The notes: a model not told the origin generated them from the letters alone. A stretch of 64,000 nucleotides of DNA from Candidatus Dormiibacterota bacterium (GCA_963850385.1 CAWKKS010000001.1:335419-399418), one strand, 5' to 3'; positions 51,754 to 59,740 are shown, counted from the first letter of the stretch. Program-made: numbers and translations.

Positions 51754-54489
51754 ATGGCCCTGGAGGAGTACCGGCGCAAGCGCGATTTCAGCAGGACTCC
51801 CGAGCCTTCGGGGGACCAAGCCGGCAACCTCCGTCGCCATTCGACGGCGGCGTCGCCGGGGTGGGACAGCCTGCCCGAGGGCCGACGTTTCTGCGTGCAA
51901 CAGCACCGGGCCACGCGCATGCATTTCGACTTCCGCCTGGAGCACAACGGCGTCCTGCTCTCGTGGCCGATTCCTCGCGGCCCCACCCTGGACCCGGCGA
52001 TCAAGCGGCTGGCCGTGCACACCGAGGACCATCCCGTGGACTACGGGGACTTCGAGGGTGTCATCCCCTCGGGTTACGGTGCCGGCACCGTGCTGCTCTG
52101 GGACATCGGCACCTACGAGTGGCTGCGTGAGACCGCGCAGGACGTCGAGGCCAGCCTCGCCAAGGGCGACCTCAAGTTCCGCCTCTCGGGGACCAAGATC
52201 CGCGGCGAGTTCGCGCTGGTGAAGATCGGAGCTCGCGGGCGCCGTCAGGGGGGCGGCAGCGACGATGACAAGAACTGGCTGCTGATCAAGAAGCGCGATG
52301 ACGCCGTGGTGGAGAAGTACGAGGCTCTCGACCACGAGGTTTCAGTCAAGACGGGCCGTAACCTGGCGGCCATCGCCGCCGACGGTGGAGGCGACCCGCG
52401 CGAGGCCGCCCGCGCCCGCCGTGCCGCCAGGCGCTCGCCGGAGCGCCCGGGGCCACCCAGCCCGCCCAGCCCGCCGGCGGACGGCGCGCTGCCGATGCCG
52501 ATGCTGGCCACCTCGGTGGATCGCCCCTTCACGCGTGAGGGCTGGATCTTCGAGCTGAAGTGGGATGGTGTGCGCGCGCTCGCCACGGTCGCCGGTGACC
52601 AGGTCAGGCTGGTGGGTCGAAGCGGTCGCGATGAGACCTCGCGGTACCCGGAGCTCGGCGCCCTTGGCCGCGCCCTGCACGGGCACAGCGCCGTGGTGGA
52701 CGGCGAGATCGTCGTCATGAACGCTGACGGCCGCCCCTCGTTCGAGCGCCTCCAGTCGCGCATCAACGTCGCCCGTGACAGCGACGTGCGCCGCGCGATG
52801 CGCGAGAACCCGGCGACGTACGTCGTCTTCGATCTCCTGCGGCTCGATGGCCGTGATCTGATGGAGACATCGCTGCGCATCCGCAAGAAGACGCTCAAGG
52901 ACGTGCTGGTCCCGGTCGACGGCGTGATGTACGCCGACCACGTGGAGCGCGACGGCGAGAGCTTCTTCGCGGAGGTCAGCCGCCACGGCATCGAGGGGAT
53001 GATCGCCAAGCGGGCCGACTCCGGGTACTCGCCGGGTCGGCGCAGCCCCGATTGGGTCAAGGTGAAGGCGTGGCAGACGCAGTCGTGCGTCATCACCGGC
53101 TGGACGGGCGGGCGCGGCCGCCGCAGTGAGCGCCTGGGGGCACTCATCCTCGGCGTGTTCAAGGGGGACGACATCGTTCACTGCGGCCAGGTCGGCACCG
53201 GGTTCGACGAGGCAACGCTGCGCGACCTGCGCGGCCGTCTCGATGGTCTGGTGGTGGGGAAGAGCGCGCTGCAGCCACCACCGCGCACCGCCGAGCCGGC
53301 CACCTGGGTTCGCCCCGAGCTGGTCTGCGAGGTGCGCCATGCGGGCTGGACGAAACAGGGCATCCTGCGTCACCCGGCCTACCTCGGCCTCCGCCAGGAC
53401 GTCGCTCCCCGCAACTGCGTACGCGAGGAGCCGGCAGAGGTCGAGGCGGTCGTGGCCGGCGCCGCATCCCGAGAAGGCACCCCGCCACAGTCGCCATCCG
53501 CGAAGGCCACGCGTGCGCACAGCCGAAGCCGCTCGGCGACCGCCGCGGCCGCAGCCGACGGCTCTGGGGCCGGCCCCCTGCTGGCTCAGCTCGCCGGGCT
53601 CGCCGGCACGGCCGCGCTCGAGGTCGACGGCAAGCGCGTGCGGCTCACCCACCTCGACAAGGTGATGTGGCCCGCCGACGGGTTGACCAAGCGCGACCTC
53701 ATCGGCCACTACATCGCGGTTGCCCCGGTGCTGCTGCCCTACCTGCGTGACCGGCCGCTTTCGATGCAGATGTTTCCCGATGGCATCGACGGCAACCACT
53801 TCTGGCGCAAGGACAAGCCGTCTCATGCGCCCGAATGGATCCAGTCCTGGACGTACCACGGCGAGAAGACCAAGGACTACATCGTCGTCAACGACCTCGC
53901 CACCCTGGTCTGGGTGGCCAACGCCGCCTCCATCGACCTCCACCCCTGGCACTCGCGCGTCGACGCGCCGCAGCAGCCCGACTGGGCGGTGTTCGACCTC
54001 GACCCTGCCGAGGGTGCCACCTTCGAGAACGTGGTGACCCTCGCGCGGCTCACCCGCGTTGCACTCGAGCACTACGGTCTGCACAGCGTCCTGAAAACCA
54101 CGGGACAGACCGGCCTGCAGATCTACGTGCCCATCCGCCGCGGGCCGGACTACCGTGCGGTGCGTGACTGGGTCGAGGGAGTCTCGCGCGCCATCGGACG
54201 CGTGGTGCCCGACCTGGTCAGCTGGGAGTGGTCGGTGAAGGCCCGCACCGGCCGGGTGCGCATGGACTACACCCAGAACATCATCAACAAGACGCTCAAT
54301 GCTCCCTACACGGTGCGTGCGGCGCCCCGAGCGCCGGTATCGGCGCCGATCAGGTGGGACGAGCTCGATGACCCCGCGTTGCGGCCTGACCGCTGGACGG
54401 TGCGCACCATCGGTGAGCGCCTGGCTGCGCAGGGCGACCTCTTCGCGGCCGCGCTGGCCGGCGACCAGGACCTCCCGCCCCTCGACTGA
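51754..54489 (+). CDS. ligD: multidomain NHEJ ligase LigD (phosphoesterase-ligase-polymerase order)
   Basis: PE domain is FCVQQHRATRMHFDFRLE. The ligase domain has motif I ELKWDG, EGMIAKR and WVKVK. The primase-polymerase domain has LTHLDKVMWP and WSRVDAPQQPDWAVFDLDP. Confidence 0.9.
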   Translation: MALEEYRRKRDFSRTPEPSGDQAGNLRRHSTAASPGWDSLPEGRRFCVQQHRATRMHFDFRLEHNGVLLSWPIPRGPTLDPAIKRLAVHTEDHPVDYGDFEGVIPSGYGAGTVLLWDIGTYEWLRETAQDVEASLAKGDLKFRLSGTKIRGEFALVKIGARGRRQGGGSDDDKNWLLIKKRDDAVVEKYEALDHEVSVKTGRNLAAIAADGGGDPREAARARRAARRSPERPGPPSPPSPPADGALPMPMLATSVDRPFTREGWIFELKWDGVRALATVAGDQVRLVGRSGRDETSRYPELGALGRALHGHSAVVDGEIVVMNADGRPSFERLQSRINVARDSDVRRAMRENPATYVVFDLLRLDGRDLMETSLRIRKKTLKDVLVPVDGVMYADHVERDGESFFAEVSRHGIEGMIAKRADSGYSPGRRSPDWVKVKAWQTQSCVITGWTGGRGRRSERLGALILGVFKGDDIVHCGQVGTGFDEATLRDLRGRLDGLVVGKSALQPPPRTAEPATWVRPELVCEVRHAGWTKQGILRHPAYLGLRQDVAPRNCVREEPAEVEAVVAGAASREGTPPQSPSAKATRAHSRSRSATAAAAADGSGAGPLLAQLAGLAGTAALEVDGKRVRLTHLDKVMWPADGLTKRDLIGHYIAVAPVLLPYLRDRPLSMQMFPDGIDGNHFWRKDKPSHAPEWIQSWTYHGEKTKDYIVVNDLATLVWVANAASIDLHPWHSRVDAPQQPDWAVFDLDPAEGATFENVVTLARLTRVALEHYGLHSVLKTTGQTGLQIYVPIRRGPDYRAVRDWVEGVSRAIGRVVPDLVSWEWSVKARTGRVRMDYTQNIINKTLNAPYTVRAAPRAPVSAPIRWDELDDPALRPDRWTVRTIGERLAAQGDLFAAALAGDQDLPPLD

Positions 54490-54527: not shown

Positions 54528-55046
54528 ATGGCCGTGCTGCTGCTCAATGCCTCCATGCAGCCGCTCAACGTCATCAGCCATCGACGGCTGATCATCCTGC
54601 TGAGCAAGGAGCGTGTGGCCTTCCTTGATGAGCGGTCACAGCGCGAGGCCGCGGAGGCGCTCAGCGGCCGCCGGCTCCCCGAGGGCGTGGTCGTGGTGCG
54701 GTTGTTGCGGACGATTCACGTCCCGCGGCGGCTGCTTCGCCCCAACCGGCGCAACCTCCTCCTCCGCGACGACCAGACCTGCCAGTACTGCGGCTTCGTC
54801 GGGTCAGCGGCCGAGCTCACCGTCGACCACATCGTCCCGATGTCACGGGGCGGCGCCGGCGACCGTTGGGACAACCTGGTGATCGCCTGCAAGAAGTGCA
54901 ACTGGCGAAAGGCCAACCACCGGCCCGAGGAGGTTGGCATGCACCTGCGCCGCCGCCCGGGTCCGCTCACCCAGGAGTACGCGCACATCATCTTCCTGCG
55001 CTACCCCGAGTTGAAGGCGGCGTACGAGGCGATCCTCGAGGTGTGA
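54528..55046 (+). CDS. HNH endonuclease
   Basis: CQYCG...LTVDHIVPMSRGG...WDNLVIACKKCNWRKAN (HNH/McrA-type ββα-metal core). Confidence 0.85.
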   Translation: MAVLLLNASMQPLNVISHRRLIILLSKERVAFLDERSQREAAEALSGRRLPEGVVVVRLLRTIHVPRRLLRPNRRNLLLRDDQTCQYCGFVGSAAELTVDHIVPMSRGGAGDRWDNLVIACKKCNWRKANHRPEEVGMHLRRRPGPLTQEYAHIIFLRYPELKAAYEAILEV

Positions 55047-55173: not shown

Positions 55174-56040
55174 ATGCCCCGATCGATGTGGCGCGGAGCG
55201 ATCAGCTTCGGCATGGTCGCGATCCCGGTGCGGCTGTACCTGGCCACGGAGTCCAAGAGCGTCTCGTTCCGGATGCTCTGCCCCGAGGACCACACGCCCA
55301 TCCGCAACAAGCGCTGGTGCCCAGCGGAGGACAAGGAGATTCCGTGGAGCTCGACGGTGCGCGGCTATGAGGTCGGCAAGGATGAGTTCGTCGAGATCGA
55401 CAACTCCGACCTCGACAACATGCCATTGCCCACCTCGCACACCTGCGAGATCCTCGAGTTCTGTGACGACTCTGAGATCGAATCGGGGTTGTACATCAAG
55501 AGCGCCTACTACCTCGAGCCCGAGGCGGTCGGGGTCAAGCCCTACTACCTGCTCAAGGCGGCGCTGGAGAAGACCGGCAAGGTGGCCGTCGGCAAGATCG
55601 CCTTCCGCGACCGGGAGCACCTCTGCCGCCTCGCGCTGCACGAGAAGGGTCTGCTGCTCAACACCCTGCACTGGCCTGACGAGATCCGTGACGCCGGCGA
55701 GCTGTCGCTACCCGAGGCCGAGGCCGAACCGGAGATCCACAAGCGCGAGCTGGACATGGCGGTCATGCTCGTCGACAACCTCAGCGCCACCTTCGACCCG
55801 CAGCGGTACAAGGACAACTACCGCGAGGCCCTGATGGCGCTGGTCGAGTCCAAGGTCAACGACCAGCCCCTCGAGGCCGCACCGGAGCGGCCGTCGAAGG
55901 TCACCGACCTGATGGCGGCGCTCAAGGCGTCTGTCGAGGCCGCCCAGCAGGGCGACCGCGCCGACCGACCGGCGGCCACCAGGCAAGCGGCCCGGCGTCG
56001 CCAGACCGCGGATGGGGCACGGCGGCGCAAAGCCTCCTGA
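55174..56040 (+). CDS. ku: NHEJ DNA-end-binding protein Ku
   Basis: MPRSMWRGAISFGMVAIPVRLY, GYEVGKDEFV and YYLEP, plus a basic C-terminal tail. Confidence 0.9.
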   Translation: MPRSMWRGAISFGMVAIPVRLYLATESKSVSFRMLCPEDHTPIRNKRWCPAEDKEIPWSSTVRGYEVGKDEFVEIDNSDLDNMPLPTSHTCEILEFCDDSEIESGLYIKSAYYLEPEAVGVKPYYLLKAALEKTGKVAVGKIAFRDREHLCRLALHEKGLLLNTLHWPDEIRDAGELSLPEAEAEPEIHKRELDMAVMLVDNLSATFDPQRYKDNYREALMALVESKVNDQPLEAAPERPSKVTDLMAALKASVEAAQQGDRADRPAATRQAARRRQTADGARRRKAS

Positions 56041-56146
56041 GGGGGCGGTGAGCCCCCGCGCCCAGGCGCCGGGTGATCGGCGACCGTCACTCGCTGCGCA
56101 GCCGGGTCTTCCGTTTGCGATGCCTGCGGCGGGTCTCCCCGGTCGC

Positions 56147-57118
56147 ATGGTCATCGAGATGAGCACGCCGTGCTCGGCGCCGTTCGACGGCGACGAGTGG
56201 CTGTTCAACGTCGATTGGGAAGGTTCCCGCTGCCTTGTCGCCGCCGATGCTGACGGGGCGATCAGGTTGCAGGGCGAGACGGGGTCGCTGGACGACCGCT
56301 TTCCCGAGATCCGCGCCGCCGCCGGCTTCCTGGCCGGGCGCGGCGCCGTGCTCGACGGGGTGATCTGCGTCCTCGACCAGGAAGGCCGTCCGGACGTGCG
56401 TGCGCTGGCGCGCCGGGCCGTCACCGGCCATGCCTGGCCACCGTCGGTCTACCTGGCCACTGACATCCTCCACCTCGACGGCGAATCGCTCACCCGCAGG
56501 CCCCTGCTGACGCGCCTCGCCGCCCTCGCCGACCTCGTCCCACCGGAGTCGCGCATCCAGCTCCCCGACCACGTCGTCGGGCATGGACGCGCGCTGGCGG
56601 CGGCGTCGGCAGAGCGCGGCCTGGCAGCGGTGCTGGCGCGACGGCAGGATGCCCCGTACCTCGCGGGCATGGCCTCCCCTCTGCGCCTGCGAATCCCGCT
56701 CTCGCCCCGCCGCGATGGGATCGTGGTGGGTTGGAGAACCCCGCGCGCGGGCCTCCAGGTGCTGCTGGGGGACTGGGTGCTGGGGCGCCTCGGCATCTTC
56801 GGCGTGGCCACGCTTCGCGAGCGCGAGGCGCGACGCTGGCTGAGCCAGGTCGCCGAGACCGTGCCGGCGGTGGCGGTCGACGACGCCGACGCGGCCGGGC
56901 CGGGCGTGACCTGGATTCGACCTCGCGTCGTCGCCACTATCGAGCCGGCTGCCCGAGCCGGTGCGCGTGGCCTGCCGTCATGGCACGTCGTGGCGCTCCG
57001 TGACGACGTCGACCCGATGTGGTGCGTGCGGCGGACGCCGGTGGATCCACCACAGGCGGTGGCCAACCAGCCGTTGCGACCCTTCAGCCCCACAGTGCTC
57101 AGCGCGCTGGAGATCTGA
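56147..57118 (+). CDS. ATP-dependent DNA ligase homologue with degenerate catalytic motifs (probable pseudo-enzyme)
   Basis: Collinear with the LigD ligase/OB domains in this same window. However, motif I is NVDWEG (ELKWDG in LigD), motif III is LDGVICV (VDGEIVV), motif IV is AAVLARR (EGMIAKR) and motif V is LRLRIP (WVKVK). Confidence 0.7.
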   Translation: MVIEMSTPCSAPFDGDEWLFNVDWEGSRCLVAADADGAIRLQGETGSLDDRFPEIRAAAGFLAGRGAVLDGVICVLDQEGRPDVRALARRAVTGHAWPPSVYLATDILHLDGESLTRRPLLTRLAALADLVPPESRIQLPDHVVGHGRALAAASAERGLAAVLARRQDAPYLAGMASPLRLRIPLSPRRDGIVVGWRTPRAGLQVLLGDWVLGRLGIFGVATLREREARRWLSQVAETVPAVAVDDADAAGPGVTWIRPRVVATIEPAARAGARGLPSWHVVALRDDVDPMWCVRRTPVDPPQAVANQPLRPFSPTVLSALEI

Positions 57119-57211
57119 CACCTCCGTCGGGGCGACCGATCATGGCTCGCTCTTCTATGCTCCGCGGCTGTTGCAGCGATGGTGGTCAGGGGAGATGCGG
57201 TGCGGATTTCG

Positions 57212-57817
57212 ATGCTGCCGCGTGAGCGGCGCTTCTACCAGCTGTTCGACGAGCACGTGACCTCGATCGTGGCCGCGTCTCAACTGCTGCGTGACGGCCT
57301 GCGTGACCTGCCCTCGCTCGCGGAGAGACAGACCGCGATCAGAGACCTCGAGCATGCCGGCGACGAGGTCACCCACGAGCTGGTGCGCACCCTCAACCGG
57401 ACGTTCGTCACACCCTTCGATCGTGAGGACATCTACGCGCTGGCGTCGGGCCTCGACGACGTCCTCGACTACCTGGAGGAGATCGGCGACACGGTGACCC
57501 TCTACAAGATCGATCGCATCCCGGCCGCCGCCACCGAGATGGTGGAGCTGATCTGCAGTGCCGTGCTCGAGCTGCAGAAGGGCGTCGGCAAGCTGGAGGG
57601 GCTCAGCGGTGTCGAAGAGCATGGTATCGAGGTGCACCGGCTCGAGAACCTCGGCGACACGGCCTCGCGGCGCGGCATCGGCGAGCTCTTCTCAGGGGAC
57701 ACCGACGCGCTCGAGGTCATCAAGCTCAAGGAGTTCCTGACGCTTCTCGAGGACGCGCTCGACCGTTGCGAGGACGTGGCCAACATCCTCGAGGCGATCA
57801 CCATCAAGAATGCCTGA
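57212..57817 (+). CDS. DUF47 / PhoU-like Pit accessory protein
   Basis: FYQLFDEH..., HAGDEVTHEL..FVTPFDREDI and the second repeat LEDALDRCEDVAN. Overlaps the pit start by 8 nt. Confidence 0.8.
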   Translation: MLPRERRFYQLFDEHVTSIVAASQLLRDGLRDLPSLAERQTAIRDLEHAGDEVTHELVRTLNRTFVTPFDREDIYALASGLDDVLDYLEEIGDTVTLYKIDRIPAAATEMVELICSAVLELQKGVGKLEGLSGVEEHGIEVHRLENLGDTASRRGIGELFSGDTDALEVIKLKEFLTLLEDALDRCEDVANILEAITIKNA

Positions 57818-58832
57818 CGGCCAGATCGTCCTCCTGGTCGTCACCGTCGCCGTGGCGTTGGGTTTCGACTTCACCAACGGCTTCCACGACACGGCCAACG
57901 CGGTGGCCACGACCATCAGCACCCGGGCGTTGGGTGCGCGCCCGGCCATCGCGCTGTCCGCGGTGCTCAACCTCCTCGGTGCGGTGGTGGCCATCCAGCT
58001 GCTGCACACCAAGGTCGCCAACACCATCGGCGGCCTGGTGTCGCCCGCGGGCGGGGTGTCGCTGGCCATGATCGTCGCGGCGCTCGCGGCGGCCATCGTG
58101 TGGAACCTGGTGACCTGGCGCGCCGGGCTCCCCTCGAGCTCGTCACACGCCCTCATCGGCGCGCTCATCGGCATGGGGATCGCCGGTTACGGGTTCAGCG
58201 CGCTGAAATGGGGAACCGTGGTGCCGGTGATCATCGGCCTGATCACCTCCCCGATCGCCGGGTTCGTGCTCGGCTACCTCTTCCTCGCCGCCGTGCTCAA
58301 CGTGTTCCGCAACATCCACCCCTCGCGCGCCAACCGGAACTTCCGCGTTGCGCAGGTCTTCAGCGGCGGCTTCGTCTCATTCAGTCACGGCGCCAACGAC
58401 GCCCAGAAGACGATGGCGATCATCACGCTCGCGCTACTCGCCACCCATCATCTTCACCTCGTCGCGGGGAAGTTCCCGGCACCGCCGCTCTGGGTGGTGG
58501 TGATGGCGGCGGCGGCGATCGCGCTGGGCACCTACGCAGGCGGGTGGAGGATCATCCGAACGCTCGGCAGCCGGATCACCCAGCTCGAGCCCGTGGACGG
58601 CTTTGCCGCCCAGACGATGGCCGCCCTGGTGATCCAGGGGGCTACCCAGCTGGCCGTCCCGGTGAGCACCACCCACGTCGTGGGAGGGTCGGTCATGGGC
58701 GCCGGGGGGGCGCGCCGGCTGGCCGCCGTGCGCTGGGGCACGGCCCGCAACATCATCGTGGCCTGGGTGCTGACCATCCCGGCGACGGCGCTGCTCGCCG
58801 CCGCGGGGGCGCTGATCGCGAGGGCTGTCTGA
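57810..58832 (+). CDS. pitA: inorganic phosphate transporter (PiT family)
   Basis: FDFTNGFHDTANAVATTISTRAL, the C-terminal repeat SFSHGANDAQK and VSTTHVVGGSVMG. Confidence 0.9.
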   Translation: MPDGQIVLLVVTVAVALGFDFTNGFHDTANAVATTISTRALGARPAIALSAVLNLLGAVVAIQLLHTKVANTIGGLVSPAGGVSLAMIVAALAAAIVWNLVTWRAGLPSSSSHALIGALIGMGIAGYGFSALKWGTVVPVIIGLITSPIAGFVLGYLFLAAVLNVFRNIHPSRANRNFRVAQVFSGGFVSFSHGANDAQKTMAIITLALLATHHLHLVAGKFPAPPLWVVVMAAAAIALGTYAGGWRIIRTLGSRITQLEPVDGFAAQTMAALVIQGATQLAVPVSTTHVVGGSVMGAGGARRLAAVRWGTARNIIVAWVLTIPATALLAAAGALIARAV

Positions 58833-58939
58833 CCCGACCGTGCTGACGGGTGCCGCTTCTGTGGCATCATCGCTCCGACCCGGCACCAGGAGCTCCCCGC
58901 GACCGCGATCGGCCTGGCCGGATGTGCGAGAAGCGCGTC

Positions 58940-59740
58940 ATGGCCATTCTCATGTGCCGTCCCGAGCACTTCGGCATCGAGTACGAGATCAACCCCTGGA
59001 TGCACGTGGCCGTCGAGGTCGACCATGGCCGCGCCGTCGAGCAGTGGGAAGCGCTGCACGCCGTCTACGAGGAGGTCGGCGAGTCGATCGTGCTCACGGC
59101 CTCCCATGCCGGCCTCCCCGACATGGTCTTCACGGCCAACGCGGCGGTGGTGTGGCGGCGGCGCGCGGTGATCAGCCGGTTCCATCACGCCGAGCGTGCC
59201 GGGGAGGAACGGCATTGGCGGGCCGCGTTGGAGGAGATGGGGTTCGTCGTGCACGAGGTGGCCGCCGACATCTCGTTCGAGGGCGCCGGGGACGCGCTGT
59301 TCGTCGGTGACCACCTGTTCCTGGCGTTCGGCTTCCGCACCGACCAGGCCGCCCACGGCGAGGTGGCCAGGTATCTCGACGTCGAGAGCACCTCACTGGA
59401 GCTCGTCGACCCGCGCTTCTACCACCTCGACACATGCTTCTGCCCCCTCGACGACCACACCGCGCTGATCTTCCCGGAGGCCTTCAGCCCACGCTCGGTG
59501 GAGCTGGTCCGTGAACGGGTGCCGCGACTCATCGAGGTTCCGCGCGAAGCGGCCGAGGGGTTCGCATGCAACGCAATGCCACTGGGCGACCGGGTGGTCA
59601 CCTCCATCGCGGCCGAGGGGATCCGTCCACAGCTCGCCACGGCCGGGTTCAGCCTGGTCACGCTGGCGGTGGACGAGTTCATGAAGTCCGGCGGCGGGGT
59701 GCGCTGCCTCAGTCTGCCCCTCGACCTCGGCGCCGCCTGA
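58940..59740 (+). CDS. amidinotransferase / dimethylarginine dimethylaminohydrolase-family enzyme
   Basis: Guanidino-group-modifying fold: FYHLDTCFCPL and the C-terminal SGGGVRCLSLPL catalytic Cys motif. Confidence 0.75.
   Translation: MAILMCRPEHFGIEYEINPWMHVAVEVDHGRAVEQWEALHAVYEEVGESIVLTASHAGLPDMVFTANAAVVWRRRAVISRFHHAERAGEERHWRAALEEMGFVVHEVAADISFEGAGDALFVGDHLFLAFGFRTDQAAHGEVARYLDVESTSLELVDPRFYHLDTCFCPLDDHTALIFPEAFSPRSVELVRERVPRLIEVPREAAEGFACNAMPLGDRVVTSIAAEGIRPQLATAGFSLVTLAVDEFMKSGGGVRCLSLPLDLGAA

Follow-up and report, generated by a model that had tools for sequence, protein, structure and literature searches.

A Ku-Adjacent Paralogue of the LigD Ligase Domain with Replaced Catalytic Residues as a Putative Accessory Protein of End Joining in Dormibacteria

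Results

In a stretch of 64,000 nucleotides from an uncultured soil bacterium of the Candidatus Dormiibacterota (GCA_963850385.1 CAWKKS010000001.1:335419-399418), hereafter the window, the gene directly behind ku encodes a paralogue of the ligase domain of LigD in which the lysine that is normally adenylated and the lysines of the other catalytic motifs are replaced. This protein, referred to here as the dead ligase, is probably a non-catalytic accessory subunit of Ku/LigD non-homologous end joining (NHEJ), co-transcribed with ku, and may bind Ku, LigD or DNA ends. The original prediction of a catalytically dead ligase fold, kept by selection and linked to ku, was borne out by the motif changes, by the AlphaFold2 model and its Foldseek matches, by the ratio of nonsynonymous to synonymous substitution rates (dN/dS) and by the position of the gene behind ku and its co-occurrence with it. 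The features of the gene are given below; residue numbers, here and throughout, follow a 323-aa form of the protein.

56048 to 57118, + strand: dead-ligase (pseudo-ligase) gene in its probable extent, identified from the open reading frame (ORF), the start context, a conserved N-terminal extension, homology to the LigD ligase domain, and AlphaFold2 and Foldseek
56204 to 56230, + strand: remnant of motif I, F-N-V-D-W-E-G-S-R (residues 20–28), with Asp23 for the adenylated Lys
56351 to 56371, + strand: remnant of motif III, L-D-G-V-I-C-V, with Val for the ribose-contacting Glu
56624 to 56644, + strand: remnant of motif IV, A-A-V-L-A-R-R, with Arg165 for Lys
56684 to 56698, + strand: remnant of motif V, R-L-R-I-P, opposite W-V-K-V-K of LigD
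56996 to 57007, + strand: motif VI-like L-R-D-D in the OB domain, with invariant Arg285 and Asp287
57083 to 57115, + strand: C-terminal peptide F-S-P-T-V-L-S-A-L-E-I, behind a Pro-rich linker and with predicted disorder (predicted local distance difference test, pLDDT, <50)

Replacement of the Ligase Motifs

The lysine of motif I (KxDGxR) is the site of the covalent AMP adduct in ATP-dependent ligases. When the dead ligase was compared by BLASTP with the LigD of the window, residues 5–315 paired with LigD residues 251–577 (30% identity, E 6e-32), in agreement with the alignment to the adenylation and OB region of the upstream LigD that had been proposed. Motif I reads LFNVDWEG (FNVDWEGSR) versus IFELKWDG (FELKWDGVR) in LigD, and the lysine is replaced by Asp23, whose codon at 56213–56215 was confirmed as GAT. 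Motif III is LDGVICV versus VDGEIVV, with Val for Glu; motif IV is AAVLARR versus EGMIAKR, in which the Glu-Gly pair is gone and the Lys has become Arg165; and motif V is RLRIP versus WVKVK, with Arg and Pro in place of the lysines. The register was upheld at motif I by an independent alignment of a profile of 60 members of the dead-ligase family to the ligase domain of M. tuberculosis LigD (1vs0, 6nhx; E 6e-32), which placed Asp23 opposite the adenylated Lys481, the catalytic lysine of that enzyme (PMC8656161). Since an Asp or Glu stands at the position of the nucleophile, and the motif III Glu and the lysines of motifs IV and V are gone, the dead ligase is predicted to be unable to form the lysyl-AMP intermediate.

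The model obtained by AlphaFold2 on the family alignment (pLDDT 86.4; predicted template modelling score 0.84), in which the first 31 residues and the last ~10 were disordered, indicated a two-domain ligase fold of nucleotidyltransferase and OB domains. The top Foldseek matches were structures of the M. tuberculosis LigD ligase domain (6nhx, 6nhz, and 1vs0; E 6e-21 to 1e-19, the best being 6nhx), followed by archaeal and human ATP-dependent ligases. The predicted conformation was closest to closed-state ligase structures such as 2cfm and 3gde (template modelling scores of 0.57–0.64). Scores against curated families fell below the respective cut-offs for TIGR02779 (115.3 bits, cut-off 227.75) and for the LigC family NF006078 (48.7 bits, cut-off 296), and PF01068 scored 25.4 bits with the 323-aa form and 26.7 bits in a six-frame search (cut-off 26.2). 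PF04679 gave no match in the Pfam search of the dead ligase. By these profile scores, the curated families appear to detect homology to ligases but not membership.

The Gene and Its Start Site

Translation of 56147–57118 on the + strand gave an open frame of 323 aa, ending with the stop codon at 57116–57118, and the G+C content at third codon positions (GC3) was 0.85, a value typical for coding frames in this 70% GC genome. The intact frame and good GC3 of the original prediction were confirmed in this way, and its 5′ limit at 56147 was not. Because homologues conserve approximately 33 more N-terminal residues, for which the window also has coding sequence ahead of 56147, the start should lie further upstream. 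The consensus of this extension in the homologues is [MV]S[PA]R.QAP.RR......LP...P..G..GR. The gene probably begins either at GTG 56048 (356 aa), which lies 8 nt past the ku stop (TGA 56038–56040) and has AGGGGG ahead of it, or at ATG 56012 (368 aa), which would give a 29-nt overlap with ku; the earlier call, ATG 56147, is less likely. With either of the two upstream starts the gene abuts or overlaps ku, so that co-transcription is likely. A scan for promoter- and terminator-like sites, which was uninformative, gave none between ku and the dead ligase and a weak promoter-like site after the dead-ligase stop.

The 323-aa core contains no lysine at all. This was considered as a special feature and carries little weight, the median lysine content of long coding-like ORFs being 1.3%, with approximately 3.6% of them having none. 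Among 67 orthologues, 42 were likewise free of lysine and the remaining 25 carried one to three.

Conservation and Selection

A search of 5.8 billion proteins retrieved approximately 95 homologues with 43–77% identity, all of them metagenomic or from metagenome-assembled genomes (MAGs) of Candidatus Dormibacterota, and the motif I position was Asp or Glu in all 46 homologues that were aligned. Within a 400-genome sample of the phylum, the gene was present in 14 of the 17 genomes of the family to which the window belongs (f1). A scan of species representatives gave 80 loci, with a full-length match in 66. Almost all of the 80 carried the label Dormibacterota or Dormibacteria, and Ca. Aeolococcus, Ca. 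Amunia, and Ca. Dormibacter were among those represented. The motif I residue was Asp in 65 loci, Glu in 11 and Lys in none, the other four being unparsed, so the substitution was kept in 76 of 76 readable copies. The frame was split into two ORFs in only two of the 80 loci (L110 and L148, both MAGs). Homologue P0073 seems to be frameshifted in the same manner; real pseudogenes or assembly indel errors are possible in these cases. Across genomes whose copies were 40–96% identical, the frame stayed open, with in-frame indels only.

dN/dS was estimated by the pairwise Nei-Gojobori method on the least saturated pairs, dS being saturated in more distant ones. In the pair L037/L038, the values were 0.074 for the dead ligase, 0.036 for Ku, 0.105 for the LigD ligase domain and 0.065 for the LigD polymerase domain. 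The dead ligase and Ku gave 0.196 and 0.21 in the pair L042/L043, and 0.285 and 0.11 between the window and L006. These values, 0.07–0.3 for the dead ligase and comparable with those of Ku and LigD, indicate purifying selection across the whole bacterial family and a clearly constrained protein. With its homology to an active family, missing catalytic residues, intact frame and signature of purifying selection, the dead ligase can be classed as a putative pseudoenzyme.

Conservation by residue was analyzed in the 67 full-length species-level orthologues (median pairwise identity 47%). Position 23 was acidic in every one of them (Asp in 56, Glu in 11), and Arg165 and Arg180 were present in 67/67, while Arg182, once a motif V Lys, was found in 62/67. 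Trp24, Gly26, and Arg28 of motif I, Asp70-Gly71 of motif III, Asp106 of motif IIIa, and Arg285 and Asp287 of motif VI were also invariant. Variable positions included the old motif III Glu (Val, Ser, Thr, or Ala), the motif IV Glu and the site of the second motif V Lys. Because the replacement residues at the catalytic positions do not drift, the AMP pocket appears to have been remodelled to a fixed acidic residue and three arginines, rather than simply degraded.

The 39 invariant columns included a motif in the disordered tail. The consensus of this C-terminal peptide is F-x-P-T-[VL]-L-x-x-L-P-[LIFM], with Phe in 66/67, Pro in 67/67, Thr in 67/67, Leu321 in 67/67 and Pro322 in 63/67 orthologues. 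The window protein itself ends in L-E-I (57110–57115), versus L-P-hydrophobic in those 63, and a penultimate Glu was seen in only 4/67. When the genome was searched in six frames with three stricter, family-derived forms of the tail, this gene was the only match. The idea that the tail is a hub-binding motif shared by several proteins of the genome, such as a clamp binder, was therefore rejected.

Linkage to ku

The dead ligase lies in an end-joining locus, whose other genes are as follows.

51754 to 54489, + strand: ligD, encoding a PE-Lig-Pol protein of 911 aa with all ligase motifs intact (Pfam)
54528 to 55046, + strand: HNH endonuclease gene (172 aa), between ligD and ku (Pfam HNH, synteny)
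55174 to 56040, + strand: ku (Pfam Ku 137 bits, TIGR02772 276 bits), the sole Ku gene in the genome

The LigD of the window is presumed to be the sealing enzyme of the locus. In the species scan, ku was directly upstream of the dead ligase in 74 of the 80 loci. It was immediately upstream and on the same strand in all ten f1 loci with long flanks and in all of the loci examined from three further families, f3, f4, and f5. The two genes remained paired where ligD is separate (4/10 f1 loci), and the pair of ku and ligase was kept across four families of Dormibacteria with differing flanks. In addition, the three f1 genomes without the dead ligase (91–98% complete) were also without Ku.

The HNH gene lay between ligD and ku in most of the loci of the same family. 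In one f1 genome (G155, 92% complete), in which ligD and ku are apart, it stayed with a gene for a PE-Pol protein, and it seems to be tied to ligD rather than to ku, as a passenger or a partner. In that genome, the gyrB-divergent ‘ligD’ encodes a 576-aa PE-Pol fusion without a ligase domain (L076, 3825–5552, + strand), with the HNH gene behind it. The genes for Ku and the dead ligase are on another contig (L044), and a LigC-like gene beside Prim-Pol contains the only intact ATP-ligase domain found there. Unless this reflects an assembly gap, the lineage has retained Ku, PE-Pol and the dead ligase and has to rely on another ligase for the sealing of breaks.

On the other side, a DDAH/arginine-deiminase-like gene of the pentein fold (58850–59740, + strand; PF19420, 53 bits) directly follows the dead ligase in the majority of the 80 species loci. 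Within the genus of the window, a pair of PhoU_div (DUF47) and PiT phosphate-transporter genes (57179–58832) is inserted ahead of it. A gene for an enzyme of an arginine-modifying type lies near the gene for an arginine-rich protein, which may be coincidental.

The Wider Ku-Adjacent Clade

Long flanks from 40 Chloroflexota loci were annotated using the proteins of the window. In every Dormibacteria locus that was examined, ku was followed on the same strand by a gene for a stand-alone ligase-like protein of approximately 350 aa. The catalytic motifs of these proteins, and of a family not beside ku, differed by family.

f1 (family of the window): motif I [DE]W[DE]G, every lysine position replaced
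f3: motif I EVAW.GVR (Ala), motifs III and IV kept, motif V lost
f5: motif I EVRWDGLR (Arg), motifs III and V lost
f4: motif I EVKWDGLR, with DGE, EGVVAK, and LKVK all intact
f17 (not beside ku): motif I Arg, E[VT]RW..IR, motifs III and IV kept

In f5 (L050–L051 and L066–L068), the order is ku, the ligase-like gene with Arg for Lys, and an intact PE-Lig fusion, so that degenerate and active domains adjoin. The f17 proteins, from another class of Chloroflexota (L054 and L069–L071), are stand-alone and have a tail of the LPLPL type.

In a maximum-likelihood tree of 56 ligase domains, the stand-alone Ku-adjacent forms formed a clade (support 98/98), apart from the LigD ligase domains, all of which retain the Lys, and from the LigC-like and LigB-like genes of the genome. 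The intact f4 proteins were nested beside f5 and f3, and f1 was a group with support of 100/100. On the best tree alone, this topology would mean that the lysine was lost several times. All members of the clade end in a related peptide, L-x-x-[LF]-P-[FLI], which LigD and the other stand-alone ligases are without. Since the tail is common to intact and lysine-less members, it predates the loss of catalysis.

Among the best 150 representatives from a library of 1.84 billion proteins, the motif I residue was not Lys in 38 (Asp in 23, Leu in 4, Arg in 3, Ala in 3, and Glu, Asn, Gly, Ser, and Met in one each). Ten library representatives of approximately 330–400 aa (P0126, P0130, P0136, P0142, P0151, P0156, P0179, P0203, P0213, and P0214) are ligase-like proteins with Leu, Met, Ser, Asp, Ala, or Arg at the position of the motif I Lys, and the DGE of motif III is often intact in them.

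Discussion

If the dead ligase is an accessory subunit of end joining, its ancestor would have been an active stand-alone ligase, partnered with Ku and carrying the tethering tail, of the kind that survives in the sister family f4. Sealing would then have been taken over by the three-domain LigD, and the copy would have been kept for its binding roles only. The remodelled pocket, with its acidic residue and three arginines, could close through salt bridges or could hold a phosphate, for instance that of a 5′-phosphate DNA end. The invariant C-terminal peptide, on its flexible linker, may serve as a tether to a partner, for which Ku and LigD are the most plausible candidates, and broken ends would in this way be held or organised for LigD, in parallel with the structural role of eukaryotic ligase IV. 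In eukaryotes, ligase IV without catalytic activity still supports synapsis and repair (PMC3549972, PMC9638927, PMC10858965, PMC11754673). In M. tuberculosis, three residues of the LigD ligase domain, D522, K579, and L580, take part in the interface between LigD and the C-terminus of Ku (PMC13717202). Mapped by hand, these residues correspond to Gly64 and to Ala125/Ala126 in a conserved R-L-A-A-L helix; this correspondence is suggestive only and was not used as evidence.

A wider reading can be put forward only tentatively. Dormibacteria, and probably further Chloroflexota, might carry out end joining with three proteins, in which a tail-tethered dead ligase binds the ends through its arginine-lined pocket and organises the break for LigD, having arisen by catalytic loss in a Ku-partnered ligase, possibly more than once. 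If so, it would be a bacterial counterpart of the scaffolding of eukaryotic NHEJ, that is, of the structural role of ligase IV and of tail-to-Ku tethering of the XLF/PAXX type.

Several observations weigh against a role in end joining or against this history. Genes for a DDAH-like protein and a LysM protein are likewise syntenic downstream of the dead ligase, and gene order can be inherited without functional coupling. No ku was present near the lysine-less f17 genes within the 4–8 kb fetched on each side. Compared within the same pairs of genomes, the dead ligase evolves at approximately twice the rate of Ku or of the LigD ligase domain. In the approximately unbiased test, a single clade of all the lysine-less forms was not rejected (p = 0.13), and three or more independent losses could not be sustained as proven. 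Finally, f4 keeps an intact Ku-adjacent ligase despite having PE-Lig and Pol genes elsewhere (L058 and L059). This rules out that catalysis was lost only where the ligase of LigD made it redundant; f4 has the presumably active copy as well as PE-Lig and Pol, and the loss is therefore not accounted for by redundancy alone.

Judged from sequence, the protein could either help or restrain end joining. It is conceivable, with a clearly lower probability than an accessory role, that the dead ligase is a brake, a natural dominant-negative that keeps mutagenic end joining in check by competing with LigD for Ku or DNA ends. The ligase fold without catalysis, the linkage to ku and the conserved tether peptide fit this equally, and the resemblance of the predicted conformation to closed-state ligases also speaks for it. 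However, co-transcription with ku at a fixed ratio would be an odd design for a regulator, and ligase IV that was engineered to be catalytically dead does not block repair but promotes it (PMC9638927).

A residual chemistry that does without lysyl-AMP, in which the remodelled pocket would act on pre-adenylated ends or serve as a nucleotide or phosphate sensor, is unlikely. The conservation of the replaced positions (Asp/Glu23, Arg165, Arg180, and Arg182) and the invariance of the motif I Trp, Gly, and Arg, the motif III Asp-Gly and the motif VI Arg and Asp speak for it. Lys-to-Ala mutants of some ligases still seal pre-adenylated nicks, which also counts in its favour. Nevertheless, f1 has lost the Glu of motif III as well as the two lysines of motif V, and the sister lysine-less families have Ala or Arg and differing motif losses, so that no common new nucleophile or pocket is conserved across the clade.

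It is equally improbable that the protein is functional in a process unrelated to end joining and owes its place behind ku to inherited gene order only. The DDAH-like and LysM/SLT genes, which also hold their position in the block across the family, and the f17 relatives away from ku are compatible with such a role, but the pair of ku and ligase persists without ligD and among different flanks in four families, and the gene is lost together with Ku. Decay of a functionless duplicate of the LigD ligase domain is strongly disfavoured and can practically be dismissed, since the faster evolution and the two split frames that would fit it are set against an open frame with in-frame indels only, the low dN/dS and the 39 invariant columns including the tail motif, and the split frames, both of them from MAGs, could be due to errors of assembly. 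An accessory role beside Ku and LigD thus remains the preferred reading.

Comparison With Known Systems

Bacterial NHEJ is usually presented as a two-protein system of Ku and LigD. If the preferred reading is true, a conserved, non-catalytic third protein derived from a ligase adds an accessory layer to it. No description of a lysine-less LigD-type paralogue was found in the literature searched, which agrees with the earlier remark that no such component was known to have been characterised in bacterial NHEJ. The corrected start, the 80-species survey, the remodelled pocket, the tail common to intact relatives, the clade structure and the related genome whose LigD is without a ligase domain are new here. 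In public sources, the dead ligase and its homologues go under the names ‘ATP-dependent DNA ligase’ or ‘bifunctional non-homologous end joining protein LigD’, at odds with their missing catalytic residues; such annotations would lead to active ligases being miscounted in genome surveys.

The closest known relative is the ligase domain of LigD (M. tuberculosis Rv0938; 1VS0, 6NHX, and 6NHZ; TIGR02779), the best match in both structure and sequence. The dead ligase shares with it the two-domain fold, the Trp-x-Gly-x-Arg of motif I, the Asp-Gly of motif III, the Asp of motif IIIa, the Arg and Asp of motif VI, and the setting in an NHEJ locus with Ku. Unlike the LigD domain, it has Asp or Glu in motif I, Val, Ser, or Thr in motif III, x-Ala..Arg in place of Glu-Gly..Lys in motif IV and Arg-x-x in place of Lys-x-Lys in motif V; moreover, it is a stand-alone protein, without fusion to PE or Pol, and carries an extra N-terminal extension and the C-terminal peptide.

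Mycobacterial LigC (NF006078), a stand-alone ligase for NHEJ backup and base-excision repair, is also made of a nucleotidyltransferase and an OB domain and is of similar length. In contrast to it, the dead ligase scores below the LigC cut-off, and the LigC-like gene of its own genome (L003) is located elsewhere, is complete in its motifs and groups outside the clade. The partner of LigC is Prim-PolC rather than Ku (PMC5663958).

The intact f4 ligase resembles the dead ligase in its place directly behind ku, its length of approximately 350 aa, its membership of the same 98/98 clade and its related tail, and differs in keeping EVKWDGLR, DGE, EGVVAK, and LKVK, so that it is presumably an active ligase. 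The clade as a whole offers a graded series, from intact proteins through those with Arg or Ala at motif I to the fully remodelled form, for the study of the passage from enzyme to pseudoenzyme.

To our knowledge, the structural role of ligases in eukaryotic end joining is known only through engineered mutants of ligase IV. As with inactive ligase IV, where the ligase supports synapsis and repair without catalysis of its own while another enzyme seals, the dead ligase would act beside an active sealing enzyme. Unlike those mutants, in which the only NHEJ ligase carries point mutations made in the laboratory, the dead copy, known here from its sequence, is a natural and separate gene beside an active LigD, and it would, if the proposed role is true, offer a natural experiment on what ligases contribute structurally to end joining.

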